Assembly (NCBI GenBank): GCA_963666485.2
Contig: CAXXUO010000009.1
Location: 433,517 to 497,516, forward strand
Direction of reading: 5' to 3'
DNA length: 64,000 bases
From: Syntrophorhabdaceae bacterium
GTDB lineage: Bacteria > Desulfobacterota > Syntrophorhabdia > Syntrophorhabdales > Syntrophorhabdaceae
This document shows, one piece after another, positions 23,001 to 60,335 of this stretch (positions are counted from its first letter, which is position 1; each line of letters opens with the position of its first letter). The notes under the pieces were generated by a model. That model was not told the origin of the DNA, made no database searches, and was given only the letters and a program-made list of their open reading frames with translations. The position numbers were made by a program, and so were the translations under genes.

Positions 23001-23867
23001 TTATTCGTGGTACTCCCACGCTGTTTTAAATAATTCTTTTAGACCATCTGATGTCTTCGGATTATCTAATCTAAGCTGAATCGCAAAGGAATCGGCGCGT
23101 TTTTTCTTGTTAAATGCGATTTCGGCATTGTCCAAAAGTTCTTTTATCTTTTCAACGTTTTCATCCCCAACGCGAATTTCGAAGTGACAGTACGTTTCCT
23201 TCTTCTTGGGATGAAACCATGCGAAATTCTTTCTTGGTGTTCCGACCGCTATATGGCCCTTATTGTATGTGATTTTCGGGTTATATCCAAGCCCTTCGAT
23301 GTTCTTTACGGCCTGGTCAAAAATGGATATCGATTTGTTATTGGCTCGTTTCACCCAGTAAGACCGGTCGGCTTTTTCGGCAGCTTCCGTATCTTCTTCC
23401 TCGGGCTCTTCGTATACATCGAGGACTTTTGTAAAATTGAGGATAATCTTATCTTCATATTTGATTGCAGCGAGTTGAATGGCTATTATTGGAATTGATC
23501 TATTTAGCAACGAAATCACGTTGAAAAAACGATTGGTAATGTCTTCCGCTACAATGACAGCGACATGGTCCTTTGACAAGAAACGACGTCTTTCGATGTC
23601 CCAATATTCTATTGTTCGTATAATATGACTCTCATCGAGTGTGCCGAGCATAATCTCGGTTTCATACATGGTCTGAGCATCGGGATCTACCAACAAAAGA
23701 TCAATTTTGCCTCCAGAAGATTGTTTTTTTTCCTTCTGATATAATGTTAAATCGCCTAATCCTAAGATTGATGGATCTTCTGCAATTCTATCTTGCAGCC
23801 ATTTTTCATTAAGGTCAGGATGTTTCTTCAGGCTAATTATATCTGGTTTTATGTATTCAAGATTCAT
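23001..23867 (-). CDS. NucS/DUF91-like PD-(D/E)xK nuclease with C-terminal DUF5655-like domain
   Basis: EKWLQD..GKIDLL..YETEIMLG.LDESHIIRTIEYW. Confidence 0.7.
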   Translation of the reverse strand: MNLEYIKPDIISLKKHPDLNEKWLQDRIAEDPSILGLGDLTLYQKEKKQSSGGKIDLLLVDPDAQTMYETEIMLGTLDESHIIRTIEYWDIERRRFLSKDHVAVIVAEDITNRFFNVISLLNRSIPIIAIQLAAIKYEDKIILNFTKVLDVYEEPEEEDTEAAEKADRSYWVKRANNKSISIFDQAVKNIEGLGYNPKITYNKGHIAVGTPRKNFAWFHPKKKETYCHFEIRVGDENVEKIKELLDNAEIAFNKKKRADSFAIQLRLDNPKTSDGLKELFKTAWEYHE

Positions 23868-24589: not shown

Positions 24590-25138
24590 CTATCCTTGTC
24601 CGCAAGCCCTGAGAAGGCTGAACAGTTCCTCCTCGGTCGCGTTTCCCCATTGGACGGCTTCCCTGGGATTTCTGTTGACTGCATCGAGCGCCTCTTCTAC
24701 GGGCAGGCCATACCGATATACGACCCACGCCGCCAGGACATGCCCTGTCCTTCCCAACCCGCCCGAGCAGTGGACAAGGACCGGCAATTCCTTCTCTTCA
24801 GACTCTGCAAGAAACGGAAGGATTTCATCTCTCAGCGCAGAAATCTCTGCAAGATGGAAATCTTTAACCGGAACAGCTAGAACGTTCAAATCACCGAATT
24901 CCTTCGAATACGTTTCGACAAGATTATTTTCATAGTAGGTTTGCAATTCCCGCTCCTGCAAAAGACAGCAAATACGCCTTATCCCCTTTTCTTTTATAAA
25001 AGACAACCAAACGTGTACCGCTGATAAGGACACTTTTCCGGGTCCATAACCCGGTCTTTGAGATCCGAATACAAACCTCTCTTCCGAACACGCTGGCCCA
25101 AACGCAAATTTGTCGTGGCTCACCAACTCCTCCTTCAC
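24590..25138 (-). CDS. Dual-specificity protein phosphatase family protein
   Basis: HCSGGLGRTG (CX5R) motif. Confidence 0.9.
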   Translation of the reverse strand: MKEELVSHDKFAFGPACSEERFVFGSQRPGYGPGKVSLSAVHVWLSFIKEKGIRRICCLLQERELQTYYENNLVETYSKEFGDLNVLAVPVKDFHLAEISALRDEILPFLAESEEKELPVLVHCSGGLGRTGHVLAAWVVYRYGLPVEEALDAVNRNPREAVQWGNATEEELFSLLRACGQG

Positions 25139-25504
25139 ACTTTTGATACTTTCTTATACCACATAACGGCGACAGCGTTATGGCACTTTGCTTCTTAAAA
25201 GACTTACTGCAAGATCGATCACATTTTCTTCATCGTGCGGAGAACATTCTACGATATCGTTGGCCGCCATCATCATATTGGTAACGGTCTGGATTGCACT
25301 ACGCAGGCACAATGGGAAGGCCGGGCATTGACTAGTTCGACAGGTGGCACCTCTGTTTTCCCCAATACTGTGTCTTGGCTGTCTTTGTGCGTCAGATAGA
25401 GCACTAGTATAAAACAAGATTTATACGATATCTTCATGATAGGCGAAGTCGAAAGATAGGATTCGGCAATGCGGACAAGCTCGTATTGAATACATGGGGG
25501 AGTT

Positions 25505-28500
25505 ATGATTGAAGAAATAGTAGCTTTAAAAGATAATCATGTTCCAACTATTTTGTTTTATGATTCGGAGCAACAACATTACATAATCGGGCAGGAAGCA
25601 CGCCAATTTGGACTGCAGGGCAAGACTAATGCATTCAATTTCAAGGTTGATCTCGGTGCTAATGATAAGACGTTTTCTCTAGACAAGAAGTACTGGATCG
25701 TTCCTAAGCATGGATACCTTGAGTCAAAAAAGACGTCCGTTACAATAGATGCACGAAGCCTTACAGCAAAGGAGGTAACCGTATTCTTTCTGAAAGAATT
25801 TCTCAAAGATCTACAAATGCCCAAGGAGATCATAATTGGTGAACCGGCTGAAAGAGATACCGTGTGGCGAGAAAACTTCAGACGACATATGCGAGATGTT
25901 TTCGAGGAGCTCTATCACATAACCCCCCAGTTTTTTCCTGAACCTTTTGCGGTGTTTCAGTATTATAGACATTACGAAAGCACGTTCAGAACCGAGAGTG
26001 TGTCTGAGACTGTCCTAATAATTGACGTCGGAGGAGGTACGTTTAACAGTTGCATTATTAGCACTACAGAAGAAGGTTATCTGTCAAGGGGCGGGGCCAA
26101 ATCAGTGCCTCAAGGATTTCAGGCGGAATTCTGCGGCGGTACCCAAATAGACAAGAAATTGCTCGAGACAGTAATAGCAAAAGCAAAACGACAGGGCATA
26201 AAATGGAAGGACGATCCAATTGCTCGAGCCGAAAAATCGCAGATCCCAGTGTTATTGACCATAGAGGATGTCAAAATAAAACTGTCAGATAGAATTGGCC
26301 CGTCAGGAAAGCTCTCAGACGATTTTTCTAACATAAAGGAAGTTGTCTGTTTAGAGCAGGGTACTTTGCATCCCGATTCAGATATCCGAGTGGAAATCAG
26401 TGGAGAGGATCTGAAGCTAGTCATAAGATATATGTGGCGCCATCACTGGGCTAACATTATTACGAAAACCGTCACAGAGGCTAAGAAAAAAATACAATTT
26501 GATAATCTTGATAAAATTCTTGTTGCTGGCGGTTCATCTAGGCTGCCATTCTCGAAAGAAGAAATACACCTTGTTATGAGATCTCTTGTCGATTTCCAGG
26601 ACATACACTTTAGTTCCGATACAGGAAAAGCGGTCGCATTTGGAATAGCATGTGAGTGTATGGAACAGATCAAAAGGAACCCTCAGCTCTCAGTCGGAAA
26701 AATAGCTCCATGCATTCTCAACGACCTATATCTAGGATTTCGAAAGACAAGGAGAGATCCGGTGATAATTCCCAAGAAGATTCATGGACCAGATGGATCG
26801 ATCTCTAAGGAAGGTCAACTTCTTTCGGCTCCCTTTGAGACTGAGGAACTATCTCTTAGATACAAAGTTGATTTGCCGTTTGACTGTGAAGGACGGCTCT
26901 TCTATTGTTTTAGCGACGTACCCTTCGAAGACGGGCCTGATAGAACGTATCTGAATCTCAACCAGGACGTTTTGTCGGTGACAAATAGAGGGAGCAAATA
27001 CCGAAGAAAATGCGAGCTTCAAATTGATTTTAAAACGAATGGCACAATTAAACCCATTTTTTATTTTACAAGGGAAGGTAAAGATGCGGGAGAGGAAATA
27101 GTACCATGTGGCGAGTTCTATATGGAAAATCTTCGCATACAGGAAGGTGAGAGTTTCCTTGGAATCGATTTCGGATCTTCAAATTCATATTTGGCTAAAT
27201 TACTTAGGGCTGAAGAGAAGGTTCAATCATTTGAATTCCCGGATTATAAAATAAAATCCGAAGTGATGGACCTGCTCAGGAAACTTGAAGGAGAAATTGA
27301 TGAACTGCGCACAGGAAAGGCCCTTAGCAAGCAAGCCATGATGGAGTACGCAAAGGACCAAATACTGCTGTTAGTCTTTCATTCAAATAAGATCGAGGGT
27401 AGTCCCTTGACCAAAGGGGAAACCGAAACGGCATTTGGAAAACAGGAGTCTGTTGAGATTACGAAACAAGAGCTTGAAGCAAGAAATCTCCGAAATGCGT
27501 ATGGTTGGATGATTGATAATGCTGATTATGTTTACACCGACCCAGAAGGATTTATCAGACAGGTCAATAGCATGATTCTCGATGGTATCATTCATGGGGG
27601 AGGTGCATACCGAAAGAAAAGTGTGAGTTTGGCTGGAATGGATTACACGCCACCTCCGAGTATATCGATTCCTTCCTATATGGAGAGACTAAGGGAGGAC
27701 CTGGTCACCGGACCAACGGGACGTTCTTTGTTGGAGTTCGCCATCACAATGCATACAAAACTTGTTGCAATACATCCCTTTATTGACGCAAACGGCCGAA
27801 CGGCGCGGCTGTTGATGAACGCTATCCTATTGGCTGGCGGGCTTCCTGTCGTCATAATAAATTTTGACGACAAACAGAGATACTTAGACGCCCTGTCCGA
27901 ATCTAACCATGGCGATATTTCAGCATTAGTAGTCTTTGTGTCGGAATGCTTTCGTGCCCAACTGGATGAGCTTAGAACACAGCCAGTGATGACTGAAGAA
28001 ATAATCCCGACAACGACTTTGCCGGAAGGTGCTGATCCCATTGCAGAGGCACTCAAAGAGATAGGGGTGGAATTTGTAGATGACCCACTTCAACTAATAA
28101 TGAATCAGAGGCTTAAGGAATTAGCTGAAATGAAAGAGGCTCAATATGGTTCCTGGAAACAGGCATTTTCAACCTTGCTATCGGAAATGAGATCCATATG
28201 TGAGGGGTTTAACTGTAATTCGAAGTTTAGAAATGAAGGATTCCGCATTGATCTTATGGAATATGATATGCTCTCTTCGGACAAGTATTTGGATATTTTA
28301 GCCAACAAAAAAGTATCAAGAACTTGGTTTTTTGGTTTAGCAGTTCTTGGTCCTTCATCCTATGTCAAGGCGTTATTCTTTTTCGAACACCTCCCCGTAC
28401 ACTTTGGGGATATGCCCGAGATAAACAAGGTGATGTTGACATTGGTTCGTTTCAATGGTGCAACCTACGATAGACTAACATCAGAACCCATAACTTTGAG

Positions 28501-28630
28501 AGGAGTTGCATATAGCAACGGTCAACTCGTTTTTCTGGGACGCAATAGCATAATAGAAAAGGATACTCCAAGGCATGCGCTTACTGTCTTATTGGCCGAT
28601 TTGATTACCGCCTATGTTACGGTTAAGTAA
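25505..28630 (+). CDS. Hsp70-like ATPase fused to Fic domain
   Basis: EPFAV, IIDVGGGTFN, GGTQID, AGGSSRLP, AVAFG; GIDFGSSNS at aa ~553; SNKIEG at aa ~627; HPFIDANGRTAR at aa ~757. Confidence 0.9.
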   Translation: MIEEIVALKDNHVPTILFYDSEQQHYIIGQEARQFGLQGKTNAFNFKVDLGANDKTFSLDKKYWIVPKHGYLESKKTSVTIDARSLTAKEVTVFFLKEFLKDLQMPKEIIIGEPAERDTVWRENFRRHMRDVFEELYHITPQFFPEPFAVFQYYRHYESTFRTESVSETVLIIDVGGGTFNSCIISTTEEGYLSRGGAKSVPQGFQAEFCGGTQIDKKLLETVIAKAKRQGIKWKDDPIARAEKSQIPVLLTIEDVKIKLSDRIGPSGKLSDDFSNIKEVVCLEQGTLHPDSDIRVEISGEDLKLVIRYMWRHHWANIITKTVTEAKKKIQFDNLDKILVAGGSSRLPFSKEEIHLVMRSLVDFQDIHFSSDTGKAVAFGIACECMEQIKRNPQLSVGKIAPCILNDLYLGFRKTRRDPVIIPKKIHGPDGSISKEGQLLSAPFETEELSLRYKVDLPFDCEGRLFYCFSDVPFEDGPDRTYLNLNQDVLSVTNRGSKYRRKCELQIDFKTNGTIKPIFYFTREGKDAGEEIVPCGEFYMENLRIQEGESFLGIDFGSSNSYLAKLLRAEEKVQSFEFPDYKIKSEVMDLLRKLEGEIDELRTGKALSKQAMMEYAKDQILLLVFHSNKIEGSPLTKGETETAFGKQESVEITKQELEARNLRNAYGWMIDNADYVYTDPEGFIRQVNSMILDGIIHGGGAYRKKSVSLAGMDYTPPPSISIPSYMERLREDLVTGPTGRSLLEFAITMHTKLVAIHPFIDANGRTARLLMNAILLAGGLPVVIINFDDKQRYLDALSESNHGDISALVVFVSECFRAQLDELRTQPVMTEEIIPTTTLPEGADPIAEALKEIGVEFVDDPLQLIMNQRLKELAEMKEAQYGSWKQAFSTLLSEMRSICEGFNCNSKFRNEGFRIDLMEYDMLSSDKYLDILANKKVSRTWFFGLAVLGPSSYVKALFFFEHLPVHFGDMPEINKVMLTLVRFNGATYDRLTSEPITLRGVAYSNGQLVFLGRNSIIEKDTPRHALTVLLADLITAYVTVK

Positions 28631-29048
28631 GTTTTTCCTAGCTAGTCAAGGGGCCAAGGGGACGTTGATGAATACTACATAAGAATTACTTCATCTTTAA
28701 AATCGCCTCGGTGGGTCATTTTTCGGTGATTACTTGCCCTTTAGATGACTAAGTTGTTAGGTTATCGCAACCAGTTGTCGTACGGAGAGAGAGGATTGCC
28801 GTTGGAAAAAGGTTATGTCTTCTGAGTTCTTTAGTTATTTACGGTCGTCCCTCTAGTTTCCTCATTTTTTTGCCAGATATCTTTATGCGACTGGAGAACT
28901 AGCGAATAACGATTTGCCTGTCAATCAAAAGTCTTCCCAAATCGGCTTCGGAGAGCCAACCTAAACACATTCTGCATTTCTGAAAAACTGGCTCTGGCCA
29001 ACTTGTCTCCGGAAAGCAGCCATCTGTTTTTTTGATCCGGATGTTTTA

Positions 29049-29617: not shown

Positions 29618-31333
29618 CTAATTATCGCTTGCATTGTCTTTGAAATTGTTAACCTCAAAAAACTTTTTTATTTCTGTCGGACAACTACTTACCTGCCATT
29701 GATAAGGGAATCTGAAAGTTGCGAATGATACTGATTCCTCCATAATCTTCTCAATACATGATGTTTCGCGTGCGTTGGTTATCTTGCAATGCTCATAAAT
29801 CATGAAAGGATCGAGTTGTAAAAATAATTCGCTTCCCGGAGCTTTGAGATATAGTCGTCCTTTTCTTAAACGAGAACGCCATTCAACAATTTCCCCCCGT
29901 GGTACAAAAAATTCTCCCATTAGCCAGCGAACTTGGTATATGTTAGTAGATAAATCCTTTTCGCTGAAATCGATCAGATCTTCTAAGAAAAAAAGCTCAT
30001 AATCGAAGAGAGGCTTCGCGTCACTGATAGCACTTTTCCACATTGGTTCAACTTTTTCAAGCCACTTTTTACAGGTGGTCTCGTCGACAATAAAGGAATC
30101 ATGTATCTTATTACGCATCTCAAGAAGACCTCTCAAAAGTCCACCGAGATGCGACTTGTTGTTATTCTTGATAAACAAGCCAGGATATTCTTTTATCACG
30201 GTTGCCTCTGGACCATTGGAAAAAGCTTGGGAGATTTCCTCAATTATTTTGAGCCATGCACCATCAGTTAGTGGTTTCTTGAAAATATCTATTATTTTCG
30301 CATTAAGTTCTTTTGAAAAAGCTCCGGCTGCATAATATTCGGCGATACCGAGGATGGCCAAATAACGCAAAAAGATGGAAAATGCTTTCCTCATGTTTTC
30401 CGCTCTAAGTGCTCGTCCATGCTCTGCTTCGGCCATACTTACAGCAAATGCTATTGGCAATGGTAGATGAACTGTAGCTGATTCGCTTGAATGCACTCGA
30501 CTTCTCTCTTCTCTAAGTATTCTTACCTGCTCTCGTAAATTGAAAATGTCTTCTTCAAGAGTTTTCAGGGTGATCGCAGGAATTGTAACGTAATCTCCTG
30601 GAGACCCTTCATCTGTCGCGTAGCTATGTTTTCGTACAAGACTCGGTCTCACAAAGAAGAAATTGTATTTACTGTCAGATTGTTTATGAAGGCTACGACC
30701 AAGAGTCGAAGACCATGCTTCTGCTGTGGTGATATCACTCGAAGGCAGCGCGTTCTTCGCAGGCTCAATTAATTTATACCGCACCGCATTAGCAAGACGG
30801 TCGAAGGTGTCTTTATCTTTATGGACGACTATCCGAACCTCTCTGAGAGTTGAATTCTTATCCAGATTATTTTCCAGGCTGTTCAGGATGGCTTCGGCGA
30901 TAATCATCTTGGGGTAACCCAGTGAGCCAGTAGCAAAAATTGGCATAGCTAGGGACTCGACTCCGAGTTCATTAGCCTTTTTGATTATTTTCTCAATCCC
31001 CTTAGCTATGACATAAAGCCGAACCACCATATCATCCTGAGAAATGGCCCTCTCCTCTTCTTGCGTTCCGTGCGTAGCAAGATGAAAAATATATTTGCAG
31101 GGAAGGCCATACCCTTTGGTTATAGCAATGCCACCTATATCAACAGGTACTTTGCTACCGTTGAGTTCATCTTGTATTTTTCCATGTGTTTTGATTAAGA
31201 TTGTACCGGCAACAGATCTTCGCCCACCGAGCGACATCCAAGTGTTTGCGGAGTTTACCATTACATCTACTTTCTGGGTTGTAATGTCCCCATCGACGAC
31301 AACGATGTTTGTTTTGTCAATGGCTGCCTGCAT
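29618..31333 (-). CDS. Macro-domain protein with coiled coil and C-terminal helical domain
   Basis: GDIT..DVMVNSAN..GG..VA..G.GLPCKYIFH..SLAMPIFATG. Confidence 0.82.
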   Translation of the reverse strand: MQAAIDKTNIVVVDGDITTQKVDVMVNSANTWMSLGGRRSVAGTILIKTHGKIQDELNGSKVPVDIGGIAITKGYGLPCKYIFHLATHGTQEEERAISQDDMVVRLYVIAKGIEKIIKKANELGVESLAMPIFATGSLGYPKMIIAEAILNSLENNLDKNSTLREVRIVVHKDKDTFDRLANAVRYKLIEPAKNALPSSDITTAEAWSSTLGRSLHKQSDSKYNFFFVRPSLVRKHSYATDEGSPGDYVTIPAITLKTLEEDIFNLREQVRILREERSRVHSSESATVHLPLPIAFAVSMAEAEHGRALRAENMRKAFSIFLRYLAILGIAEYYAAGAFSKELNAKIIDIFKKPLTDGAWLKIIEEISQAFSNGPEATVIKEYPGLFIKNNNKSHLGGLLRGLLEMRNKIHDSFIVDETTCKKWLEKVEPMWKSAISDAKPLFDYELFFLEDLIDFSEKDLSTNIYQVRWLMGEFFVPRGEIVEWRSRLRKGRLYLKAPGSELFLQLDPFMIYEHCKITNARETSCIEKIMEESVSFATFRFPYQWQVSSCPTEIKKFFEVNNFKDNASDN

Positions 31334-33399: not shown

Positions 33400-36300
33400 T
33401 TATAGCATTTTCTTTATTCTTTCCAGGAAAATTGTTTTAGCTGTATCGGATAATCCCTGAAATTTGGCTACGAGACCGTCCACTTCAAGCTCGTCAAGTC
33501 GTTTATCACACGAAGCTGCAGCCGCATGCACTTTCTTGAGATCTTCTTCGCTGAGGAAAGCAGGGGGGTTTTGCAATTTTACACGGATTTGGTTCACGCT
33601 TACCGCGTCAAGAGTGGAAATGGCCGAGGCTCCCGGCACTGAAGTGTCAATCCACCTGATAGATTGTTCTTTCCGCTGTATTTTGCACGAATCTAAAAGT
33701 TTTTCATAAGTCTCTTCTATATCCCACGGTGGTTCTTCTTCATCGAAAGCATCCTTGGCTTTGGATAAACAATTCGTGAATATATCTAGCTGTTGTTCGT
33801 CGGTAATTTGGAGAGAACCGAATTCATGGAAATGATCTATCATCATTCGCAAATAGCTATCAATGGTCTTAAAGTCCTCAAGATCTTTGTCTTGACCCTC
33901 ATAAAGATCTCGTAATATTCCAACCTCTCGCAAAATATCACTTATATCATCAATTTTCGAAATATCGCTATTCCATAATTGTTCTCCGCGTTCTTTGTCT
34001 GCATCTAATTGTTTTTGGCATTTATCTCTCAAATCGCGAATTTTTCCTGCAGCGGAATCCAATTGTGGTATCGCGCTAGATGATTTATTTGATCTTGCCG
34101 ATAGAATAGTATCCGATATACGTTTTGCGGTACTCATAATATTATGAAGATCTTTCACTTTAGTAAATTCAGATATTATTTGCGAATTGACAAAGGCATT
34201 GGCTTCATCAACAACGTATTTTATTCGCTGATTTTCATCAATATCGGACCTTATTCGATCAACATGATCTTCTAATTTTTTTCGTTCTTCCGGCAATCCA
34301 AGGGTCGTTAAATTCTGCTGAATGCGTCGCATTTTCTGTTCAAAATCACCCCAAGCTTTGAGATCTATAATAACTTCACCCTTGACCCAACTCGGAAAAA
34401 ATTGCTTGGTTGCATTTTTTGCTTTTTGAAGAAGGTTCTCAACTCGAGAGAAATCTTCGTCCAGCCAAGCATCCTCTTTGTTATTCATTCGGTCCAAAAT
34501 CCTGGCCAACTCTGCCCCGCATCTCGATATATTGCCAGCGTTTTGTTTTTGATAGGCTCTTTCCAGAAACTCATCCTGTTTTTCAATTTCGTTATCCCAA
34601 CGTTCGAGCTCATCTTGTGCGTCTTTGGAGCGATTCGCAAGCAACTCGTAGTGATGCAATCTATCGGGAGGGAGAGGTATTCGTTTTTTAAGCTCATAGG
34701 CCTTAAAAATCCAATCAAGTTGTGCGCGATATTTTTTTTCAGAATCCCACGAACTGAGGAGATCATTCCATTCATCCGTAGCCCCAGTGTCTACGGCCTT
34801 TATGGCGGTTGACTCCAAGTAATTCAGTGAAAGATAGTTGCCGGTAAAAGCTCCACTCAACCACTTATCGATAGGTATGATTTCACTACCGATCAAAAAC
34901 CATAATTTATCATGGCGAGGACAAATGAATAGACCAATGAGCATACCGGCTGAAGCTATGTTACAGCCATACGGGGGTAGGCAAAGCTCACGTGCAAAAG
35001 AACCCAGATTTACCGATATTCCCGCCTTCAACTGAGAATCAAGCGTGGCGCATATCTTAGCTACCGAACTGTTGCGAGGCTTCGTTGTTATCAAGCCATC
35101 GGAACCCAATGCTTTCCAACTATTATTTAGAACAGAAACAAGGCGATTCCTCTGCTGGGCATTGCGTGTTGCGATGTAACTTTGAGTGAGGCTACCCCTA
35201 AAAAGTTCCGTTGTGAATACTTGACAATCCTTCGCTGCGCCTCCTTTGGTTTTATGAAAGCCATCAAACGGGAAAGGGATGCAGGAAGTATATATTCCAT
35301 TAAAAAGATCGTATAGAGCGTCTCTGATTTTGATTCCGCGCTTCAGTTGCTTATTGCCGGCGAAAAATAAGCCTTCATTCTCCTGTTTCCTAAAAGTTCC
35401 CTGCAATTCTTCTAATGCATTAGGTTGCCTATCCATGATGAAATTTGTAAATCGTTTCATATCTTCATCATTGCCTTTATTGGCAAGAATCCAATGTTCT
35501 GCGATTAATTTACCGAGATTGCCATCTTTATCGTGAAGAAATGCCACTAGCAAAGGGATTTTAGTATCTTCATTGACGCCAAGCTTTTCGAGGGTTGAGT
35601 TCCATAACAGAGTGCTGTTTTCGACAACCCGAGCATAATCGCTATCAGGTCCAACATAACAATAGATGAGTTGTCCTCGGGGATCATCCGGTGTGACCGC
35701 CTCTCTCCAATTACGGATAGCATATGCAATATGGCCACCAAGCATTTGTATTGTCGAGATTGTAACTGTATATTTCCATTCGGGTGTTGTAATCTGATTC
35801 TTCATCCCGAAATCTGTTTCTACGTGATCAATGGACAGCCAATCCTTAATGTGAGTTGCGAAAAGTTCTCCTCGCTTATCAAGTGATATTTCACTGATCT
35901 TGGCTTCGAGGACATCCAGGAAAGCACGCCTAGGAAGAGCATCGCCGATGATCTCGAACTGATGAATGGAATCATTCCATTCGATCACATTATGTTCAGA
36001 TGTAAGTCTTTTTATCGTTTCTTTTATTTCTTTTGTTTGTCTTGCACTGAGCGAGCCTAGGATTGTTTCCCATTCCTGTTGTGTTTCGCCACGGCAACTT
36101 ACTTTGGACGCGAGCAATATTGCTTTAAGAACATCAACATCCTTGCTTTTGAATTCATGAGAATATTTATTTATGACGGTGCCGTAAGCATGGGCCATCG
36201 CGCCCTGCTGCCCGAATCTTTCTGAAGCTATGAATTCATTTATCATATCATCGGTGCATAACGCAGTCGCAGGAAGTGTCCAATATCCATTCGCAACTTC

Positions 36301-37653
36301 CTTGGCGCGATATTGATCTATCGCTAATGCCAATAAGTACAGCGCTGAACGGTTTTGAAGAGATTTACCTGCAGCGGACAACTTATAGAGAAACCAGGTT
36401 GCCATAGGATGCAGAGGCCAACATCCTTCCACTATTATTTTGGAAAAATGCGCTGGTTCTATCCAGAGAGGATATTTTGATGAATCCGGGAACCATTGCT
36501 TTAAATTATGCATAGTTTGATACTTCTCGGATTCGCTCACGTTTTTCTCTATATATGTTTTCAATAACTTTTCATCTTTCTTCTGTATTAAGCTTGCAAT
36601 AAGGGTTTCAAGATTTGTTGAAAGATGAACTCTTGTTGCTGAATCATAGCGTGTGACGTATCTATTGAGACCGTCACGGAACTCCGGCGCTACCCTCGAC
36701 ATATATGCTTTCAATTCATACTGGATGAAACATAATAGTGAGACTACATCGCTTTCGGCTTGTACGGCCTCGAAAAGTTGCTGCAATACTCCACTGCCCG
36801 CTACATAAGGTTTCTGGACCGCAAACTCCAAGTAGCGCCCAAATTCGTCGAATATGATGAAGATCCCTTTAAATGCCTTATCGGGGCCGCAGTAGGTCTT
36901 ACGTAAAACCGACATGAATTCTTGCAATGATTCCTGCCCGACCGATATGATTGGTGTTCCCATTTTGTCTTCAAAAATACGACTTATTTTCTCAAATACT
37001 TCTTCGTCTTGATCTAAAAGCCGTTGAAGCAAAGCTTCTTTGTTAACATCCCGACCAAAGATTTCGGAAAATTCTTTTTCTAACGATTCATAAAATGATT
37101 CAACGAAGCTCTTAGCCGACTTAAACCGCGGCCGAAGATCTTCCAAGGGTTTGACGTCGAGGTTATGCAATTTCAGGCGTAAGAAAACCTGCCGAATTAT
37201 TTCCCGTGACAAGTTAAAATCCTGCATTCCGTTAATGGCGAGAACCAGATAAGGTTGTTCGAGATTCGTCAGTATATGGGAGACAAGAGATCCGATTGAA
37301 CCATCGGCTTGTTTAATATTATCGATAATACACTTAGCCGTATCTCCGTCGGGTTCGCTCAAAAGTTCAGCAATTGTTACCCCTAAATGAGACTTGCCCG
37401 TGCCCCAACCCGAGATCGCGAGCGTAAAGGGGTCGGACGAATTATCCTCTCCCGTTATTCTTGTGAGGATGTCTCTGACAAAAGTAGCTGTATCTATGTC
37501 GGATTCGCCTGCACCATGATAGTCAGGCCCGTGGAAAACAAAATGTTCGGCTGCCTTTTTGCTTTGGGAAGGATCAGTTTCAAACCAACTTATCTGGACC
37601 GCTCCTTGAAAAAGACGGTCTTTACGGAAAGTAATTAAATCGGCAAGTTTCAT
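33400..37653 (-). CDS. Large SspC/BrxC-like P-loop ATPase (second copy) with helical C-terminal extension
   Basis: SGWGTGKS, IIFDEFGRYLE, WPLHP, LQNRS, PPYG parallel the motifs of CDS 50797-54213. Confidence 0.7.
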   Translation of the reverse strand: MKLADLITFRKDRLFQGAVQISWFETDPSQSKKAAEHFVFHGPDYHGAGESDIDTATFVRDILTRITGEDNSSDPFTLAISGWGTGKSHLGVTIAELLSEPDGDTAKCIIDNIKQADGSIGSLVSHILTNLEQPYLVLAINGMQDFNLSREIIRQVFLRLKLHNLDVKPLEDLRPRFKSAKSFVESFYESLEKEFSEIFGRDVNKEALLQRLLDQDEEVFEKISRIFEDKMGTPIISVGQESLQEFMSVLRKTYCGPDKAFKGIFIIFDEFGRYLEFAVQKPYVAGSGVLQQLFEAVQAESDVVSLLCFIQYELKAYMSRVAPEFRDGLNRYVTRYDSATRVHLSTNLETLIASLIQKKDEKLLKTYIEKNVSESEKYQTMHNLKQWFPDSSKYPLWIEPAHFSKIIVEGCWPLHPMATWFLYKLSAAGKSLQNRSALYLLALAIDQYRAKEVANGYWTLPATALCTDDMINEFIASERFGQQGAMAHAYGTVINKYSHEFKSKDVDVLKAILLASKVSCRGETQQEWETILGSLSARQTKEIKETIKRLTSEHNVIEWNDSIHQFEIIGDALPRRAFLDVLEAKISEISLDKRGELFATHIKDWLSIDHVETDFGMKNQITTPEWKYTVTISTIQMLGGHIAYAIRNWREAVTPDDPRGQLIYCYVGPDSDYARVVENSTLLWNSTLEKLGVNEDTKIPLLVAFLHDKDGNLGKLIAEHWILANKGNDEDMKRFTNFIMDRQPNALEELQGTFRKQENEGLFFAGNKQLKRGIKIRDALYDLFNGIYTSCIPFPFDGFHKTKGGAAKDCQVFTTELFRGSLTQSYIATRNAQQRNRLVSVLNNSWKALGSDGLITTKPRNSSVAKICATLDSQLKAGISVNLGSFARELCLPPYGCNIASAGMLIGLFICPRHDKLWFLIGSEIIPIDKWLSGAFTGNYLSLNYLESTAIKAVDTGATDEWNDLLSSWDSEKKYRAQLDWIFKAYELKKRIPLPPDRLHHYELLANRSKDAQDELERWDNEIEKQDEFLERAYQKQNAGNISRCGAELARILDRMNNKEDAWLDEDFSRVENLLQKAKNATKQFFPSWVKGEVIIDLKAWGDFEQKMRRIQQNLTTLGLPEERKKLEDHVDRIRSDIDENQRIKYVVDEANAFVNSQIISEFTKVKDLHNIMSTAKRISDTILSARSNKSSSAIPQLDSAAGKIRDLRDKCQKQLDADKERGEQLWNSDISKIDDISDILREVGILRDLYEGQDKDLEDFKTIDSYLRMMIDHFHEFGSLQITDEQQLDIFTNCLSKAKDAFDEEEPPWDIEETYEKLLDSCKIQRKEQSIRWIDTSVPGASAISTLDAVSVNQIRVKLQNPPAFLSEEDLKKVHAAAASCDKRLDELEVDGLVAKFQGLSDTAKTIFLERIKKML

Positions 37654-37672
37654 TGAATCCTCTTATTAATAC

Positions 37673-38488
37673 CTATTTGTAAATTTGAGACCAAACTTCT
37701 GAAGATGGTTGTAATTTGTGAATGATCCATGGACGCATCTGCCTGTCTATCCTGACCGAGTTGGTCTCTTCAATGAGATTGAGAATGGCGTCTGTATCCG
37801 ATTGAACCCAGGAAGCGGCGTCGAACATTCCGCTAACTGAATTAAGGTCGTATGCAGTAACCTGTATTTGACCGGGAAATTCATCTTCGATGATCTGTAA
37901 AATATAAGCTGCGTAAACTCTTGCGTAATTCCTGGCAATTGGCGCCTTACCGCTAACAACCTGCTTTTCCAGTTTTTTCAAAGGATCTATTTTGCCTAAT
38001 GCAACATCGTCATGATAAGTTCTTATTAAAGGACCAATCCGATTCCTACCGGGTCCAAAAATGTTCTTGAGATAGTCCTCAAGCTTGGTCACCGTGAAGG
38101 AAGCACCCAATATATCTCTGCCCCTGACAAATGTCTCATACCATGCCGCTGCACCATGCGAAGGATGACATAAACTGAGGTGCGCGATCCACTGGGTTAC
38201 CGGTTGACTCAGCAAAGCATCTTCAAGCAACACAATTCGACCAAAATTCGTTAGAACAGGATGTCTGATACCGTTCTTGGATTTCAAATCATACTGGATT
38301 AAGCCCATTCCCCTAGCATAATCTATGATTGCCGGCACCTTGCCATTTGATTTTCCCATCGGGATCCCGGTGGCACCGGCTATGTCATGGTAGCTTCCTG
38401 ACAAACCGTTTCCCGCATACTGAAGCAAGCTATTAAGCAGTCGTCTTTCCGGAATAAAAGTTCTATGAAAGTTAATTGGCAATGACAT
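37673..38488 (-). CDS. DUF4007/SspB-like winged-helix protein (second copy)
   Basis: FHRTF..GIPMGK..YARGMGL..LTNFG..D.LL....TQWIAH.L parallels the DUF4007 motifs of CDS 54221-55171. Confidence 0.6.
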   Translation of the reverse strand: MSLPINFHRTFIPERRLLNSLLQYAGNGLSGSYHDIAGATGIPMGKSNGKVPAIIDYARGMGLIQYDLKSKNGIRHPVLTNFGRIVLLEDALLSQPVTQWIAHLSLCHPSHGAAAWYETFVRGRDILGASFTVTKLEDYLKNIFGPGRNRIGPLIRTYHDDVALGKIDPLKKLEKQVVSGKAPIARNYARVYAAYILQIIEDEFPGQIQVTAYDLNSVSGMFDAASWVQSDTDAILNLIEETNSVRIDRQMRPWIIHKLQPSSEVWSQIYK

Positions 38489-41400
38489 TTAGGTCGCACT
38501 CTCCTTACCAATATCTTTGAAACGTGATCTTAAAGATTCGATCTTGATGTGAAATGCTTTCGTCTCGAGCCCCTGCTGAGTGTTCAGCGAAGGTCCTAGG
38601 GAATAACATTCTCCTTTTTTAAGCCTGGAAAGACGTTGTATCCATATTTCAGCTTTTTCATTCGTGGTGTTTTCCAATATTTGGGCATAACTTCGCAATT
38701 CGGTATCCGCGGGCTTAAAGAATAATTTATGACTCGCTTGAAATAATCTGTCTTGTTCATCTTTTTTAAGATTGCTTAGAGTCTGCGTTGCCACAATGAG
38801 GGAGATCCCGAATTTTCTTCCCTCCGTTAGAAATTTACCGAGAGGACTTTCAAGGTCATGATCCAGGTTTTGAATTTCATCGAGTATTATGATCCTGGGT
38901 CTGTCTTTATTGCCCTTACCACGATAATACCAGTATAGATCGATAAGGGTGAATTCCGTGATCAACTTCGATGCATCCTTTAGAAAACCTGCCAGTTGAA
39001 GGATATGACAGCGGGAATTTTGATCCATAAACAAGGTCTCCCAATTATCGCCTTCCTCAGCGCCAAACGGATTCATATCGACAAAAGGCTGGATCTTGCT
39101 TACGACCGTCAAAGAAGATGGATTTTCGTCAACCATTTCTTTGAGTTCTTCGATCAATAAAGGCAAGGTCATTTCATTTCCGTGCGTTTCTATTCCTCTC
39201 TTTATGGCCGTGTAGAGGGCCGATTTTTGCTGGTCGCCAAATTCGTAAACTTCGGAAAAAACCCCGCTAACCCTCTGTGCCGTATTAGACGGGTCTTCCG
39301 GAAGAAGCATTTCGCCGATCATGTCTTCCTGCCGCCTGAAAGGATTTATGGGTAATGGATCCTTTCGTACAATATGTTGAACAGGTTTCAACATCTTTCT
39401 TGTCTCAGTTTCCAGCTGATTGTCATAAAATCCGTTGGTATAGTCCACTATTAAAGAATTTTGGCCGGCCCGACCGAGTTCACATAATAAGGCTTGGATC
39501 GCATACGTCTTTCCCATCCCGGACGTGCCAAATATGAGTATATGCCTGTTCGCTAAGTCCTGGTGACCGAATTCCCAGAACACTTGTCTATTGCCTTGAG
39601 CGCCTTGGCCCAGAAAGATCCTCTGGGGCAATTTCGGCTCAATTGTGCCGCGATACTCGGGTTCGCTAACGTCCGGTTTCTTGTCTGAGATTGATGTCTG
39701 TGAATCGTTGTCCGAAGCACTGCCCGTCTCACCTCCCGGTGCTTGTTGTTTCTCTTCGTTGATTTCTATCGAAGGTTTTATTTCTTTTTCTAGCGTAATA
39801 CTTGAATAATCAAGGCTTTGTTCACCCAAAGGCAAATAGGTATCAAGGTTGTTCAGGCATAGAGATTTTACGAATTGACGGCCGGCGGATATCACCCCTG
39901 CCATCAGAGTGTTTTCGCCTACTTGAAACTCCCAATCGGCGACCCTGGCTATGTTCGATTGATCGGAGTCAGTCCAAAAGGTAACCGCCGCCGCCTTCCA
40001 TTGAATCGTAAAAAAACCATCGCTCAGCCTCTCAAGGGCATTAATAGCATCTTTAAACTGCGGATACTTCACTCGTCCCTTGCTCGCTATCAGGCGTTGG
40101 AGCTGCAGCCACCAATATCGCTGATCGGGCCTGTCATCAATTCCCTCATTCTTACCTTGACGAGGTTTGAAGCAATCTACCAAATGGCTCAGACCACTCT
40201 GAAGCTGTTCTCGGGCCTTTTCAAGATGCGTCTCAGATTCCTGGGCGAGTTTGCACTCGAACAGTTGCGATTCGATCCGGAACTGCCCATCTATTATTGT
40301 GGCCTTCAAACGCAATAGATCTGGTCTGTTATTATTTGGTGACGAATCAAACCAATGCCGAAAGGCATCGAGAGAGACAATCTCGTCACAGAAAGCATCG
40401 GCATCCCTTGGAAGCAATTTTCGCAACAAAGCGTACGAGATATAATCTCTGACGTATTGCGACGGCCCCGTGGCCTTAACGAGGGACAAACCCGCCATAT
40501 GCAGAGATTCGCTGATGATGCTTGATGCCATATTGTTGCTTGCCTCGTGATCCAAAGGCCCCAGTTTCGACGCTATGTGCGACGCAATCTTAGACCGGAC
40601 TTGTGCGATCCTGAAGAAATCCGTCGATATGGTATAGTTATGCTCGCCATGGCTACCGACGCCAGACCCAAATCCGATAATTTCTCTTTGCCGGATACCA
40701 TTATGATCTTCTTTTCCTATTAGCCTTTCATCTACGGATGGGTCGATACACACTACCCAGGTGCTTCTTTCGTGCAGTTTGTCGACCAGTCTTTTCCAAG
40801 GTGCAAAATCGCCTTTTCCCATTACTATGTAATCCTTCTCTGCAACATGCGTCGGCAGCTTCAAGCGTGCCATTACTTGAGAATGCAGGGTGCCTAAGAC
40901 AAATTGGCGATTGCTGATAATCCTTTCGCGTACCCAATCCATACCGCCGCCTACCACTGAGCAACAGGCTTTTTCTAAGACGGGGAACATTCGGAATTTT
41001 CCGCTTGCGTCATACGGCTCAATCTCTTCAAACTTATTTCCCCCCGCCCCTGCACGGACAAAATGGACCAAGAAGGATAGATCAACATTAATTTGGGAGA
41101 TCAGGTTTTCGAACAATGTATGGTCTTTCTGCTGGGTAATGAGGCGGTGAGCAACTGAGATCTTACACCAACTGTAGTAGTCATACTTTGCCGAATACTC
41201 TGCACCAATCCACCTTTCACGCCAAGCACTAACCCATTTTGTCATTGCGGTGTCATCCTGAGTTTCGGCAAAGAGGATGAGCGAAAGAGTGTAAGGTCTA
41301 TCGCCGCTCCTAATTTTTGCCAGTTCGCGCAAATAGGCATCTATACCTGCTATAACAGGTTGGACAGGCCCCCCGCAGTAGGCACTTATGGATAGGCCAT

Positions 41401-43774: not shown

Positions 43775-43775
43775 A

Positions 43776-45413
43776 TCAACCTCCCTTCCGGCCGCTCAAG
43801 CTTTGGTCCAACGAGAACGGATTTTGAACAAGCGAACATGCATCGGAAAGATGGACTAAGAAACCGGAAGCCTGCAGCATGGCCATAAGCCAGCTGCTCC
43901 CCATCGTCCCACCGGTATCGATCCGTGGAAAATCGCACCATGACAAGGCATTGGCCAACTGCTCCCCTTCTATGGCAATTCCATAATGGGTATAGAGGCT
44001 CCTCTTGAAGTCCTCATACGTCCTGCGCGAGCCGGGAGGTATCATTGTCAGGACAAGGTATCGAAGGATCCTTTCGTTGAAGACAAAACGCGCTCCCGGC
44101 CCTCTCTTTGGCACTATAAACCCCAATCTTTTTCCGATGGAGAGGAAGAGTTTATGGCCGTAGCTAGTGTCCGCTTCATCATAAAGTTTATCTAATTTGG
44201 TCTTCCGGCTTTTTTGGGCATTTTCATAAATTTCTTTTGTCCGCAGGGCCTGCTGAATAAATGTCAACAGTATGTTCATATTCCGCTGGGAGAGTTGCTT
44301 AATGGCACGCTCCGTTCCCTCCGGATCGGAAATTATCCAGGCAAAATTGAGTGGTACAACATTCTCGTTCTTCTGGATATTTGGACTGCAATGCCTCATT
44401 GACTGTGCGCAGAGGCTTCTCAATATTTGAAGCCCGCAACCCACCATAAGCAGCTCAATGCGTTCAATCGGGTCAATAATGGCACTGCATAATCTATTAA
44501 GCTCTACGGCAAAAAGATATCCCTCCCGCCAACTCTCTTCCGGACACCAACCGCACTCGACAAAACGTTCGCTTCGATTTGTGACACCCCAAGTGCTACC
44601 ATCAATTGTGTCAATCAAATCAACAATGGCGTCCAATACGTCTGGAACCTTAGCGGTAATAGCGCGTAACTCCCCATTTAAAGATGCCAAAAGTTTTTGC
44701 GGGTTTTTTTCATCTTCTGTAAGATCATAAGAAGTCACGAAATTATCTAATTGAGGATCCCGTTTACGAAATGCATTACAGAGTTGTAAATATAGCAGCT
44801 CGCCACCGCGTGCCATAAAAATTCGTTTATCATATGCAAAATATTGAATGGCTTGATCCCATGATTTAACACCATCCCGCGTCGCTACCGTTTGCTCCCA
44901 TATAGCTTCAGAGCATAGGAAAGACTTACTTAAAGGATAAAGAGTCTGCGCACACCAAGTACGGTCAACGCCAACACCCTGGAAACCTAGATATAAATTC
45001 TCGAGACTCTTTAGGACATCTCTTTTGTCAACCCCTTCTGTCCTAATCACATTTTCTAGCTTACGAAGGAGATCCTTGTAGTGTTGTTTATGACTTTCAT
45101 GCCTACTGTCAATCCTCGAAGCTCCTAAGAATGCAAACAGTTTTAGGTTGAGACGTATTGGCACTCTATACTCCAAGCTTTTCCCAATGGGCCAACCCTG
45201 AATTTGCTCCCAAGAAGGTAACGAATTATCAAAGATTGAAATGTTATCAAGCCTTTTAGGAGAATTAAATATGAGAAGCAATTCTGCAAGATGCTCCAAT
45301 ATAGTCTGATCTGTAAAAAAACGTTTTCCGAAAAGTTGAATCCCTGGATTTGCATCACTTCCTTTTACTTCATAATCAAGCTTTACTTTGGGAAAAGCTT
45401 CCGGTAATGGCAT
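43776..45413 (-). CDS. SspG/DndG(DptG)-like protein
   Basis: Lies between F and H; C-terminal wHTH-like YGI..L..SGFL.HLSDACSLVQNPF. Confidence 0.65.
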   Translation of the reverse strand: MPLPEAFPKVKLDYEVKGSDANPGIQLFGKRFFTDQTILEHLAELLLIFNSPKRLDNISIFDNSLPSWEQIQGWPIGKSLEYRVPIRLNLKLFAFLGASRIDSRHESHKQHYKDLLRKLENVIRTEGVDKRDVLKSLENLYLGFQGVGVDRTWCAQTLYPLSKSFLCSEAIWEQTVATRDGVKSWDQAIQYFAYDKRIFMARGGELLYLQLCNAFRKRDPQLDNFVTSYDLTEDEKNPQKLLASLNGELRAITAKVPDVLDAIVDLIDTIDGSTWGVTNRSERFVECGWCPEESWREGYLFAVELNRLCSAIIDPIERIELLMVGCGLQILRSLCAQSMRHCSPNIQKNENVVPLNFAWIISDPEGTERAIKQLSQRNMNILLTFIQQALRTKEIYENAQKSRKTKLDKLYDEADTSYGHKLFLSIGKRLGFIVPKRGPGARFVFNERILRYLVLTMIPPGSRRTYEDFKRSLYTHYGIAIEGEQLANALSWCDFPRIDTGGTMGSSWLMAMLQASGFLVHLSDACSLVQNPFSLDQSLSGRKGG

Positions 45414-49990: not shown

Positions 49991-50810
49991 TTGCTTTGGC
50001 CTCTTTACTCTTGGTTCTACATTGATATGTGCCATGTAAATTGTTAGAACACAAAATATCAATCAACTTCTTTTTTTCGTGGAAATCGCGGGGCATATCA
50101 TCTTGAGACTTATCCGTGTCCTTTAAGTCTCTTAAAAATTTGGGCTTACCTTTCTCTCCCGTCCTCCATGTATATACTCGACAATCTGAATGTTTTTCCT
50201 CATACTGGCAAGCCTTTTCAAACAAATCAGGATGATGTCTTCGAAGCCCAATCCAATCCTTTTCGCTTTGATAAAAGCAAAAAAAACAGCCGGATCTTTT
50301 TCTCCACGAATAATACCCGGGCATTCCCAATCCTGCTGTTCGTAAAATATTTTCGACGTCGGAGAGAATTATCCCGTCATCAACAAACGGATGGCGCGGG
50401 ATAATATTGGGAATGGTCGGTTTATAACCTTCACGTTTTTCGTCTGCACGCAATGCTACATAACTGTAGACTTTTTTGTCGCCAACATAGGCTTCGAAGG
50501 GCTCTAATTTCAATAATCTAGTGCACCATCTATTTTGTGGTGAAGGAAGTACGCCTTTAAAATATTTAAGCCAGTAATCGAAGTTTCTACGCGGCTTTAG
50601 TACATTGATATCTACATTTAGAACCGCTCGAATCCTATTTAAATACTTATAGGTCTCAGGAAGCTCACAACCACTATCCGTGAATACATATTCCATTTGT
50701 AGTTTCGGATATTTTTCCTTCATATAAATTGCAAGAGCAGCGCTATCTTTGCCCCCTGAAAGCGCTAGAATATGATGCTCGTGTTGGTTGGAACAGTTAT
50801 TTATGTTCAT
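49983..50810 (-). CDS. PAPS-reductase family protein (SspD/BrxP-like)
   Basis: LSGGKDS, DSGCELPETY, RWCTRLLK, RSGCFFCFYQ. Confidence 0.88.
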   Translation of the reverse strand: MNINNCSNQHEHHILALSGGKDSAALAIYMKEKYPKLQMEYVFTDSGCELPETYKYLNRIRAVLNVDINVLKPRRNFDYWLKYFKGVLPSPQNRWCTRLLKLEPFEAYVGDKKVYSYVALRADEKREGYKPTIPNIIPRHPFVDDGIILSDVENILRTAGLGMPGYYSWRKRSGCFFCFYQSEKDWIGLRRHHPDLFEKACQYEEKHSDCRVYTWRTGEKGKPKFLRDLKDTDKSQDDMPRDFHEKKKLIDILCSNNLHGTYQCRTKSKEAKANE

Positions 50811-54213: not shown

Positions 54214-54220
54214 GATTGCC

Positions 54221-60102: not shown

Positions 60103-60335
60103 ATGTCCTTTCTTGCCGTTGCCCGGGACCGCATCGGCTCTGGAAAAGTAATAGGAGACCATGGAGATGCGAAATGGGGGTGTTCTTTGATATCCGTTTT
60201 TCTCTTAAATGTCTGAAACAAATAAGACATAATGTTACCATATATGAACAAATGAGTACTATTTGTCTGGCAGAAGAACGCGATCTCTGGTGCGCGAATC
60301 ACAATATCGGACAGGATTTCTTGGGGGAAATAACC

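Follow-up and report, generated by a model that had tools for sequence, protein, structure and literature searches.

The open reading frame (ORF) at 25505..28630 (+) in a 64,000-nucleotide stretch of DNA from a Syntrophorhabdaceae bacterium (contig CAXXUO010000009.1, positions 433,517 to 497,516; hereafter the window) raises the question of how an Hsp70-type ATPase can work when its gene begins after the first hairpin of the fold. The predicted protein of 1041 aa combines an Hsp70-like module, a Fic domain and a C-terminal domain. We propose that the Hsp70-like module is circularly permuted, that is, the hairpin which in Hsp70 comes first is encoded here ~550 residues downstream of its usual place, between a beta-rich region and the Fic domain.

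Residues 1–388 (25505..26668, +) were recognized through Pfam, hhalign and a profile search of the Protein Data Bank (PDB) as an Hsp70/ASKHA ATPase domain without strands beta1 and beta2. The domain begins at strand beta3 and bears K47, E146 (CONNECT 1), D174-GGGT179 (PHOSPHATE 2), G342-G343 (ADENOSINE) and G380 (CONNECT 2), motif names which we take to be those of Bork, Sander and Valencia (1992). Pfam identified only aa 166–385 of it [HSP70, PF00012; 33.4 bits versus a gathering cut-off of 20.6, E 2e-8], and the equivalog cut-offs for DnaK and HscA were not reached (TIGR02350, 30.4 versus 822.55 bits; HscA, 18.1 versus 708.55). Comparison by hhalign with a profile of 11 DnaK sequences from the same genome and its relatives aligned aa 14–385 with DnaK 38–373 (probability 98.4), while the PDB search placed profile positions 10–385 on Hsc70 33–378 and returned Hsp70 ATPase domains at E ~1e-17 to 4e-19. 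Since these alignments start at DnaK residue 38 and Hsc70 residue 33, the first ~35 residues of the Hsp70 ATPase (beta1-beta2 and the phosphate-1 loop) are absent from the N-terminus, in agreement with the original prediction that the protein begins after the first DnaK hairpin. The canonical order from N- to C-terminus, with beta1-beta2-beta3 leading, is thus departed from: beta3 opens the chain, and the hairpin comes only after aa 548.

In the actin/Hsp70 fold beta1 and beta2 form the centre of the lobe-IA sheet and bear the Asp which binds Mg and phosphate, knowledge that reportedly goes back to Flaherty et al. in 1990 and to Bork, Sander and Valencia in 1992. A domain which keeps every other catalytic residue would for this reason need the two strands. 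K47, E146, D174, G342 and G343, together with D555 of the downstream hairpin, are kept in all 87 Fic-type sequences and T179 in 85 of them; in the hhalign comparison the ATP-site residues align with DnaK K70, E171, D194 and the GGS adenosine motif. As all ATP-site residues are kept, the ATPase of this protein is probably active.

The N-terminus of the protein is MIEEIVALKDNHVPTILFYD..IIGQEARQ. A Shine-Dalgarno-like GGGGGAG, read from the sequence, lies at 25496..25502 (+), 2 nt ahead of the ATG at 25505, which is a short spacing. An in-frame TGA is present at 25487..25489 (+), five codons 5' of this ATG (translation ...Y*IHGGVMIEEIV), and because the five open codons between the two include no ATG, GTG or TTG, an N-terminal extension is barred; the ATG is that of the original prediction. 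All sequences in an alignment of 31 relatives, and again all in one of 87 sequences, share the start M..EEIVPL....IPTIV.YD..IG..AR. At 15 loci (the window and 14 metagenome loci) the reading frame stays open for no more than 23 codons ahead of the called start. The region 25305–28830 was identical in two assemblies of runs from one sample, possibly the window's own source.

The element missing from the N-terminus is found at aa 549–568 (27149..27208, +), where conservation, profile alignments and a permutation scan delineate a PHOSPHATE 1 beta-hairpin consisting of beta1, the loop GIDFGSSNS and beta2. The only phosphate-1 motif of the protein, FLGIDFGSSNSY (aa 551–562), falls within FLGIDFGSSNSYLAK (aa 551–565). 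GIDFGSSNS itself (aa 553–561) aligns with DnaK IGIDLGTTNS, which makes Asp555 the presumed Mg/ATP-binding residue. G553 begins exactly at nt 27161, as had been predicted for a GIDFG hairpin at aa ~553. The surroundings are likewise as foreseen: the beta-rich region ahead of the hairpin, estimated at ~150 aa, measures 160 aa, the Fic domain comes after it, and the inhibitory-helix Glu, E631, lies 76 aa beyond D555, where ~70 aa had been expected.

Conservation of this hairpin is strict. Among the 144 relatives of at least 850 aa, D555 and G557 are invariant and G553 is present in 141; every one of these proteins has exactly one [GAS]xD[FL]G motif, situated at aa 362–687. GxDFGxSNSY occurs near aa 553 in all members of the 31- and 87-sequence alignments, and the spacing from G553 to Y562 is 9 in 178/178 sequences. 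The permutation had been proposed with the reservation that homologs might carry an N-terminal GIDxG which is simply truncated here. A regular expression for such a motif matched the short N-terminal stretch of only one of the 144 relatives, at a non-hairpin 'DVGGG', and no upstream copy was found in six frames within 900 nt at 15/15 loci, a survey which left out L093 (gene in two ORFs), L095 (three ORFs) and L098 (cut by the contig end). With a single motif kept in the 144 relatives and no upstream copy at the 15 loci, the permuted order is therefore not a truncation.

Profile comparisons place the hairpin where the ATPase domain lacks it. The second-best alternative alignment of hhalign put aa 552–564 on DnaK 6–18, and the hairpin region of the window and 14 loci matched the N-termini of DnaK over 18 columns (probability 85.3, E 6e-6). 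In a permutation scan, which served as a control, 81 segments of 24 columns drawn from aa 391–1038 of the 87-sequence alignment were each prepended to columns 1–390 and scored against DnaK. Seventy-six gave scores of 121.4–123.1, the baseline being 122.1 with an alignment start at DnaK 38; the other five (starts at aa 535–551, all overlapping the hairpin) raised the score to 135.5–149.2 and reached DnaK residue 6. With columns 548–571 ahead of columns 1–390 the alignment to DnaK 3–374 was unbroken (probability 99.2, E 1.6e-19, versus 6.6e-16 for the unpermuted columns). Because the lengths fit almost residue for residue, the new chain ends are placed in the beta2/beta3 turn. Circular permutation, the description originally given, appears from the profile-profile comparison and from a Fic-less sister family to be the right one at the sequence level, and we regard it as very probable. 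The permuted unit would be the ATPase domain plus the beta domain which follows it, with the old N-terminus joined to the end of the beta domain; the alignments demonstrate this, or nearly so.

How widespread is this arrangement? A word-indexed search found 73 relatives, most of them of ~1040 aa and with precomputed HSP70 and Fic assignments. An exhaustive search of cluster representatives with aa 1–620 as the query gave 273 matches at E≤1e-3 and 184 at E≤1e-10, and a profile search 420 proteins at E≤1e-20, with details from the best 120 of the 420. Named records carry the labels "Fic family protein" or "hypothetical protein", an example being WP_281761255.1 from Pseudodesulfovibrio nedwellii. 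In a scan of genome contigs the Fic motif dominated the matches, which were generic Fic proteins, and the results were set aside.

The sister family, of ~900–930 aa (43-sequence alignment), has the same permuted module and again no N-terminal hairpin; K54, E151, D180, G182, G184, G369 and G370 are invariant in it, as are G586, D588 and G590. Its C-terminal ~300 aa are not Fic and had no match in the searches, and contain a near-invariant K736 and an invariant H737 (P0118 numbering; P0118, P0126, P0144 and P0174). When the two families were compared by hhalign, aa 10–571 aligned with 18–603 at E 2e-76 and nothing aligned after aa 571. Since the Fic-less family has the same module including the hairpin, the hairpin belongs to the ATPase module and not to Fic. 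A third group, of ~1070 aa, has the same layout with Fic. In a midpoint-rooted FastTree phylogeny (575 columns, 180 sequences) three clades, Fic-A, non-Fic and Fic-B, comprise 108 sequences (107 with the Fic motif), 58 (none with it) and 14 (12 with it), respectively. From the sister families and the tree we take the permuted module to be older than its present effectors, which are attached right after beta2. That the hairpin of the sister family leads into a C-terminus other than Fic points to a general junction of module and effector, one that is not specific to the Fic helix.

Loci of the sister form (~910 aa) include L149:8110-10860 and L150:5938-8670; one copy lies on the conjugative Bradyrhizobium barranii plasmid pBb323S2a, as a "hypothetical protein". 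In 400 genomes of the phylum the aa 1–620 query had a match in one other genome, the ~910-aa form amid housekeeping genes. Two members of the family are interrupted, one at L095:7992-11102 split into three consecutive ORFs (651, 173 and 240 aa) and one at L093 split into two; these are likely to be pseudogenes or sequencing frameshifts.

Between the ATPase domain and the hairpin lie a linker and a beta-rich domain (aa 389–548; 26669..27148, +). Its alignment by hhalign to the substrate-binding beta domain (SBD-beta) of DnaK was weak (E 0.2, 0.009 and 0.014) and kept the same register all three times, with CELQIDFKTNGTIKP on IEVTFDIDANGIL. Possibly this region is a very divergent Hsp70 substrate-binding beta domain; we treat the identity as a lead and not as a finding, because the register differs in the sister family and the PDB profile search came back without Hsp70. 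No helical lid was found in the 1041-aa protein.

If the hairpin completes the ATP site, it could do so within its own chain. It would then fold back in cis, giving the lobe-IA sheet its two central strands and Asp555 for Mg and phosphate. Such completion in cis by aa 549–568 is, we infer, likely. Insertion in cis is favoured because the link between the beta domain and the hairpin is short and length-constrained, F537 and G553 being separated by 15–22 residues in 177/178 sequences. Covariation was examined by mean-field direct coupling analysis (DCA; 180 sequences, Meff 166). Pair 554–563, within the hairpin, ranks high; pairs 558–183 and 558–178 join the phosphate-1 loop to the phosphate-2 loop (ranks 21 and 26), and pair 549–386 joins the start of the hairpin to the last helix of the ATPase domain (rank 10), all of these being weak signals.

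Folding of aa 1–545 and aa 546–640 as two chains gave a score of 0.46 (runs 0.53, 0.16 and 0.46), graded as weak support, while the best of three for the controls was 0.00. At least 50% of contacts recur from run to run, no contacts being given, and the partner has a predicted local distance difference test (pLDDT) score of 43–46, so that its fold is uncertain. The mark for support was reached by 116/157 solved complexes and by 2/215 mismatched pairs; scores of 0.60 or less accounted for only 18 of the 157 solved complexes, yet for both of the mismatches that passed. As Hsp70 ATPase domains have already been solved, the pass may be memory of the fold.

A linker of aa 569–620 (27209..27364, +), in which the family alignments show a near-invariant Y578-P579 and an L591-R592 helix, joins the hairpin to the Fic inhibitory helix. 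Placement of P579 on the proline of the DnaK "TPS" was rejected, the column confidence being near zero. The Fic (Fido) domain itself occupies aa 621–825 (27365..27979, +) and resembles that of FICD, its inhibitory helix preceding the core, as judged from the PDB profile search and PADLOC. Pfam Fic [PF02661] matched aa 683–775 (E 3.6e-15, 57 bits versus 24). The best PDB profile match was human FICD [6i7j_A; E 1.9e-47, profile positions 608–823], after which came the C. elegans FIC-1 homologue and then bacterial Fic structures; in PADLOC the Fic region matched SoFic (E 1e-22, profile positions 13–266 of 361) and PDC-S04 (E 1.5e-24). The alignment to FICD begins, at profile position 608, with residue ~110 in the chain of the construct that was crystallised, which presumably lies after the tetratricopeptide (TPR) repeats, and the inhibitory motif follows within ~20 residues.

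That motif, (S/T)xxxE(G/N), reads SNKIEG at aa 627–632 (27383..27400, +) and aligns with TVAIEGN of FICD. E631 matches the gatekeeper Glu234 of FICD and is present in 87/87 sequences, the whole motif in 79/87. Fic proteins with an N-terminal inhibitory helix we take to be the class II of Engel et al. (2012). The catalytic motif HPFIDANGRTAR (aa 757–768; 27773..27808, +) conforms to H.F.[DE][GA]NGR..R in 85/87 sequences, its first Gly being Ala in the window protein and 13 others. Assigned from these motifs, the protein is a predicted Fic AMP-transferase with both its catalytic motif and its autoinhibitory Glu intact. The Fic consensus is given as HPFx[D/E]GN[G/K]R in PMC7479194 and PMC2686095. 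As described in PMC8373988, Glu234 sits atop the inhibitory helix of FICD, where it blocks AMPylation and is required for the de-AMPylation of BiP, and the residue of this Hsp70 which FICD modifies is Thr518, in loop l7,8 of SBD-beta.

Beyond the Fic domain a conserved C-terminal domain (aa ~850–1041; 28052..28627, +) contains near-invariant W941 and F960. Its ~200 aa had no match in Pfam, NCBIfam or the PDB, and protein atlas scores stayed below 0.8 (0.76). In a search among shorter proteins it was confined to the Hsp70-Fic family, bar two fragments at contig ends.

The surroundings of the gene bear upon its function. At ~22 kb the GC content drops from 0.50–0.57 to 0.41–0.48, with a steep step from 0.52 to 0.42 at the left edge of the low-GC island which begins there. 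The genes of this island specify PIN, dual-specificity phosphatase (DSP), Macro and Schlafen/AlbA_2 proteins, a second SspC-like protein with a DUF4007 gene, a DndH/SspH-like protein, SspG- and SspF-like proteins, PD-T4-6-like kinases, a PglW-like protein, SspD, SspC, SspB, a DinG-like helicase and AbiEi. No tRNAs were found across the window, nor any Rfam match over 19–33 kb, and a promoter/terminator scan gave counts at or below the shuffled expectation. Across 17 metagenome loci and the window the Hsp70-Fic gene has no conserved neighbour, and so stands alone; the next-largest neighbour cluster, DndH-like, comprises three loci, and no conserved J-protein or GrpE neighbour was found. A normal DnaK is encoded elsewhere in the same genome. 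PADLOC matches at E≤1e-10 were obtained for 21 of 120 neighbouring ORFs of at least 100 aa, at 12 of the 17 other loci (counts without a background control), and include PsyrTA, type I and II restriction-modification (RM) systems, SspG/H and PD-T4-6.

The explanation which we favour, with a probability of about 0.68, is that of a permuted ATPase, completed by its hairpin in cis, acting as the sensor-switch of a Fic defence effector. Both ends of the beta-rich domain would be tied to the ATP site, and the effector would be placed directly on the exit of beta2. The Hsp70-like module would be sensor and switch at once: binding of a ligand (peptide, phage protein or cellular cue) would together with the ATP/ADP state reposition hairpin and linker, Glu631 would be freed from the active site of Fic, and the enzyme would begin to AMPylate its target, whether cellular or of the phage. 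A mechanical link of this kind between the nucleotide pocket and the Fic inhibitory helix is plausible from the order of elements in the chain (hairpin, ~60-aa linker, SxxxEG helix). The gene would be a stand-alone defence gene of the abortive-infection or toxin type carried in defence islands. SoFic is described in PMC12249575 as a Fic-based abortive-infection AMPylase which acts by toxic AMPylation.

Several results weigh against this explanation. At the hairpin, Pfam had no match on aa 535–600, phmmer with the hairpin segment against the PDB returned one ASKHA protein (3c0b) at E 1, and the 10 PDB matches of a 15-sequence hairpin profile included no Hsp70, being chance or expression-tag look-alikes. 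The beta-rich region (aa ~389–548) had no Pfam match, its profile gave two chance matches and no Hsp70 in the PDB, and the corresponding region of the sister family aligns to SBD-beta in another register. The two-chain test is weak, comes without an interface and fell to 0.16 in one of its three runs. Hairpin pairs make up ~6 of the top 90 DCA pairs, which is roughly their chance share and no enrichment; mutual information with average product correction (144 sequences) was swamped by the subfamily signal and uninformative, and covariation was unable to separate insertion in cis from insertion in trans. Five of the 17 loci are without a PADLOC neighbour. Of 97 candidate stretches in viral contigs none was confirmed, and phage records yielded no match, results which are neutral on defence.

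Might the permutation itself be illusory? A 5'-truncated, frameshifted or misassembled gene, with a true N-terminus bearing the hairpin, does not sit with the in-frame stop five codons ahead of the start, with the identical start used across the whole family, or with the absence of the motif from every upstream frame at 15/15 loci; the two identical assemblies speak against it too, though they derive from one sample, possibly the window's source. We consider an artefact already refuted for practical purposes and give it next to no probability. GIDFG could also be unrelated to the ATPase, the Hsp70-like part being a degenerate scaffold which does not bind ATP and the hairpin a part of the linker or effector; the motif is short, and ordinary sequence searches gave it no significant match. 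However, every other ATP-site residue is invariant, which is unexpected in a dead scaffold, and the motif is common to a family with a different effector, the shared region ending just after it. It is moreover the sole segment which completes the DnaK profile alignment, and does so seamlessly, and without beta1-beta2 the lobe-IA sheet would be short of two central strands. This makes an unrelated motif highly improbable. A less remote alternative accepts the permutation and has the hairpin donated in trans, aa 549–568 completing lobe IA of a neighbouring chain. The protein would then be an obligate domain-swapped dimer or filament, and oligomerisation would control the effector, comparable to the dimer-monomer switch of FICD acting on Glu234. 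Sequence evidence and covariation are alike blind to cis and trans, and the two-chain fold is in trans by construction (0.46 versus 0.00 for the best control, graded weak and with the caveats noted above). FICD activity is switched by oligomeric state (PMC8373988) and SoFic requires dimerisation (PMC12249575). Set against donation in trans are the F537-to-G553 link of 15–22 residues in 177/178 sequences and, weakly, the DCA pairs 549–386, 548–393 and 552–401 (ranks 10, 144 and 193), which put the start of the hairpin by its own interdomain linker. The N- and C-termini of Hsp70 ATPases are close together in lobe IA, so that closure in cis would be geometrically easy. Donation in trans we therefore judge unlikely.

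The architecture may equally be as proposed and the role other than defence. The protein would in that case regulate itself as a chaperone-like machine and correspond, in bacteria and within one chain, to the FICD-BiP pair. Its Fic domain would AMPylate, and reversibly de-AMPylate, the Hsp70-like module of the same protein or a client bound to that module. The nearest solved Fic is FICD, the enzyme which AMPylates and de-AMPylates BiP at Thr518 (PMC8373988), the gatekeeper Glu needed for de-AMPylation is invariant, and the weak alignment of the beta-rich region to SBD-beta of DnaK spans the strand before loop l7,8. The distribution, on the other hand, is patchy (one other of 400 phylum genomes), and the gene lies within a low-GC island and has defence genes around it, as it also has at 12/17 other loci. 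In the alignment of 31 relatives no Ser, Thr or Tyr is conserved in the loop that follows the "NG" strand, and the sister family swaps Fic for another C-terminus, as sensor-effector defence proteins do. A chaperone-like role is accordingly improbable to about the same degree as donation in trans. A further idea, for which we would claim only an outside chance, is that these proteins are a novel kind of immune or stress switch that derives from a chaperone. The substrate-binding-like domain of a naturally permuted Hsp70 would be fastened to the ATP site at either end, and the hairpin would connect the binding of clients and the hydrolysis of ATP physically with an effector that can be exchanged, Fic here and another domain in the ~910-aa relatives; Fic would AMPylate or de-AMPylate its own beta domain in cis. 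If this were true, the fusion of a FICD-like Fic to such a module would provide, in bacteria, a "Rosetta stone" for the axis of FICD and BiP.

Whichever role is considered, the permuted Hsp70-Fic protein can be compared with several known systems. With the nucleotide-binding domain (NBD) of Hsp70/DnaK [ASKHA, PF00012] it shares five ATPase motifs, the invariant catalytic Lys, Glu, Asp and Thr, and the succession of ATPase domain, linker and beta-rich domain; it differs in that the phosphate-1 hairpin comes after the beta-rich domain, whereas in Hsp70 it comes first, and in that no helical lid was found. FICD (HYPE) has the same Fic motif and (S/T)xxxE(G/N) helix, with a similar separation of inhibitory Glu and catalytic His (126 aa between E631 and H757, versus 129 aa between E234 and H363 of FICD). 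The substrate of FICD is an Hsp70; here the Hsp70-like partner stands in the same chain. Unlike FICD the window protein has neither a TPR domain (no TPR Pfam match) nor a membrane anchor, and it possesses an extra C-terminal domain of ~200 aa, a bacterial host and a location in a defence island.

SoFic and PDC-S04 resemble it in the match to the Fic region, in being single genes and in their occurrence in defence islands. SoFic, unlike the window protein, is a protein of ~360 aa without an Hsp70-like module, and its C-terminal part is not matched here; a small downstream antitoxin (AS1) has been described for it, whereas no conserved small downstream neighbour was seen at the 18 loci. The CoCoNuT type IV restriction systems (CnuD, CnuCD) combine an Hsp70-like ATPase with a substrate-binding-like unit in varied fusions, which are likewise predicted immune proteins; the units are linked to McrB/McrC and have degenerate ATP sites, and the accessible part of the paper mentions neither permutation nor a Fic fusion (PMC11090510). 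In the present family, by contrast, the ATP site is intact, and there are no McrBC neighbours at the 18 loci.

In the literature searched, coverage of which takes in few subscription journals, neither a naturally permuted Hsp70/ASKHA ATPase nor a fusion of Hsp70 with Fic in bacteria came to light. A 2026 review of Hsp70 diversification (PMC13580251) has, in the portion searchable, no term for permutation or fusion, "Fic" occurring only within the author name Fichant; in the corresponding portions of PMC7824862 and PMC3710099 the terms matched only in unrelated uses. The only Hsp70-like units of anti-phage systems found in this literature were those of CoCoNuT, in PMC11090510. Judged from our searches, no circular permutation of the Hsp70 ATPase fold had so far been described in nature, and the present case would be the first.

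A number of other features were observed in the window. A gene for a dual-specificity phosphatase of the polymorphic-toxin or "Swiss Army Knife" type (24590-25138, -; Pfam DSPc, Tc-R-P, PTP-SAK) is divergent from the Hsp70-Fic gene, and beside it lies a gene for a protein of 288 aa with a weak PADLOC PDC-S11 match (23001-23867, -). Convergent with the Hsp70-Fic gene is 29618-31333 (-), encoding 571 aa, of which the N-terminal part is a Macro domain (ADP-ribose binding or hydrolase, E 2e-12) while the C-terminal ~400 aa are unassigned; this pairing is not kept at other loci. Further along, 33403-38488 (-) encodes another SspC-like protein, a divergent one of 1417 aa (PADLOC E 1e-14, without a Pfam match), which adjoins a DUF4007/SspB-like protein of 271 aa. 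The two may make up a second Ssp-like module, in degenerate or variant form.

A large defence cluster of the Ssp/Dnd phosphorothioation type extends over 38492-55171 (-). It encodes a DndH/SspH-like protein of 1761 aa (DndH E 1e-63), an SspG-like protein, a kinase fused to an SspF-like part, a PD-T4-6-like kinase, a PglW-like protein, SspD (E 2e-94), SspC (E 0) and SspB (E 2e-94). Giant ATPases of the DndH/SspH-like kind lie within ~10 kb of the Hsp70-Fic gene at 4 of the 18 loci (L083:16-444, L092:1308-6374, L096:11706-16874 and 38492-43774 of the window) and are directly adjacent to it in L083 and L096, which may reflect plain co-location in defence islands or a recurrent pairing. At 55638-58346 (-) a helicase of 902 aa matches models of the type IV CRISPR-associated DinG (Csf4) at E 1.5e-93; a CRISPR array or other cas genes were not noticed nearby. 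Three direct repeat blocks (165, 34 and 85 nt; 88–98% identity) at 59725-60104 and 61002-61300 lie on either side of the AbiEi gene (60174-60923), spaced ~1.2–1.28 kb apart.

The family, which comprises hundreds of sequence clusters, is a candidate single-gene defence system, and Pseudodesulfovibrio nedwellii, with WP_281761255.1, offers a cultivable source of it. Hsp70 allostery is a dialogue between the ATP site and the substrate domain through a single linker, and a variant in which the hairpin follows the second domain and immediately precedes an effector is a natural experiment on this coupling. Its fusion to the type of Fic which regulates BiP in animals raises the question of whether the relationship between Fic and Hsp70 is ancient.

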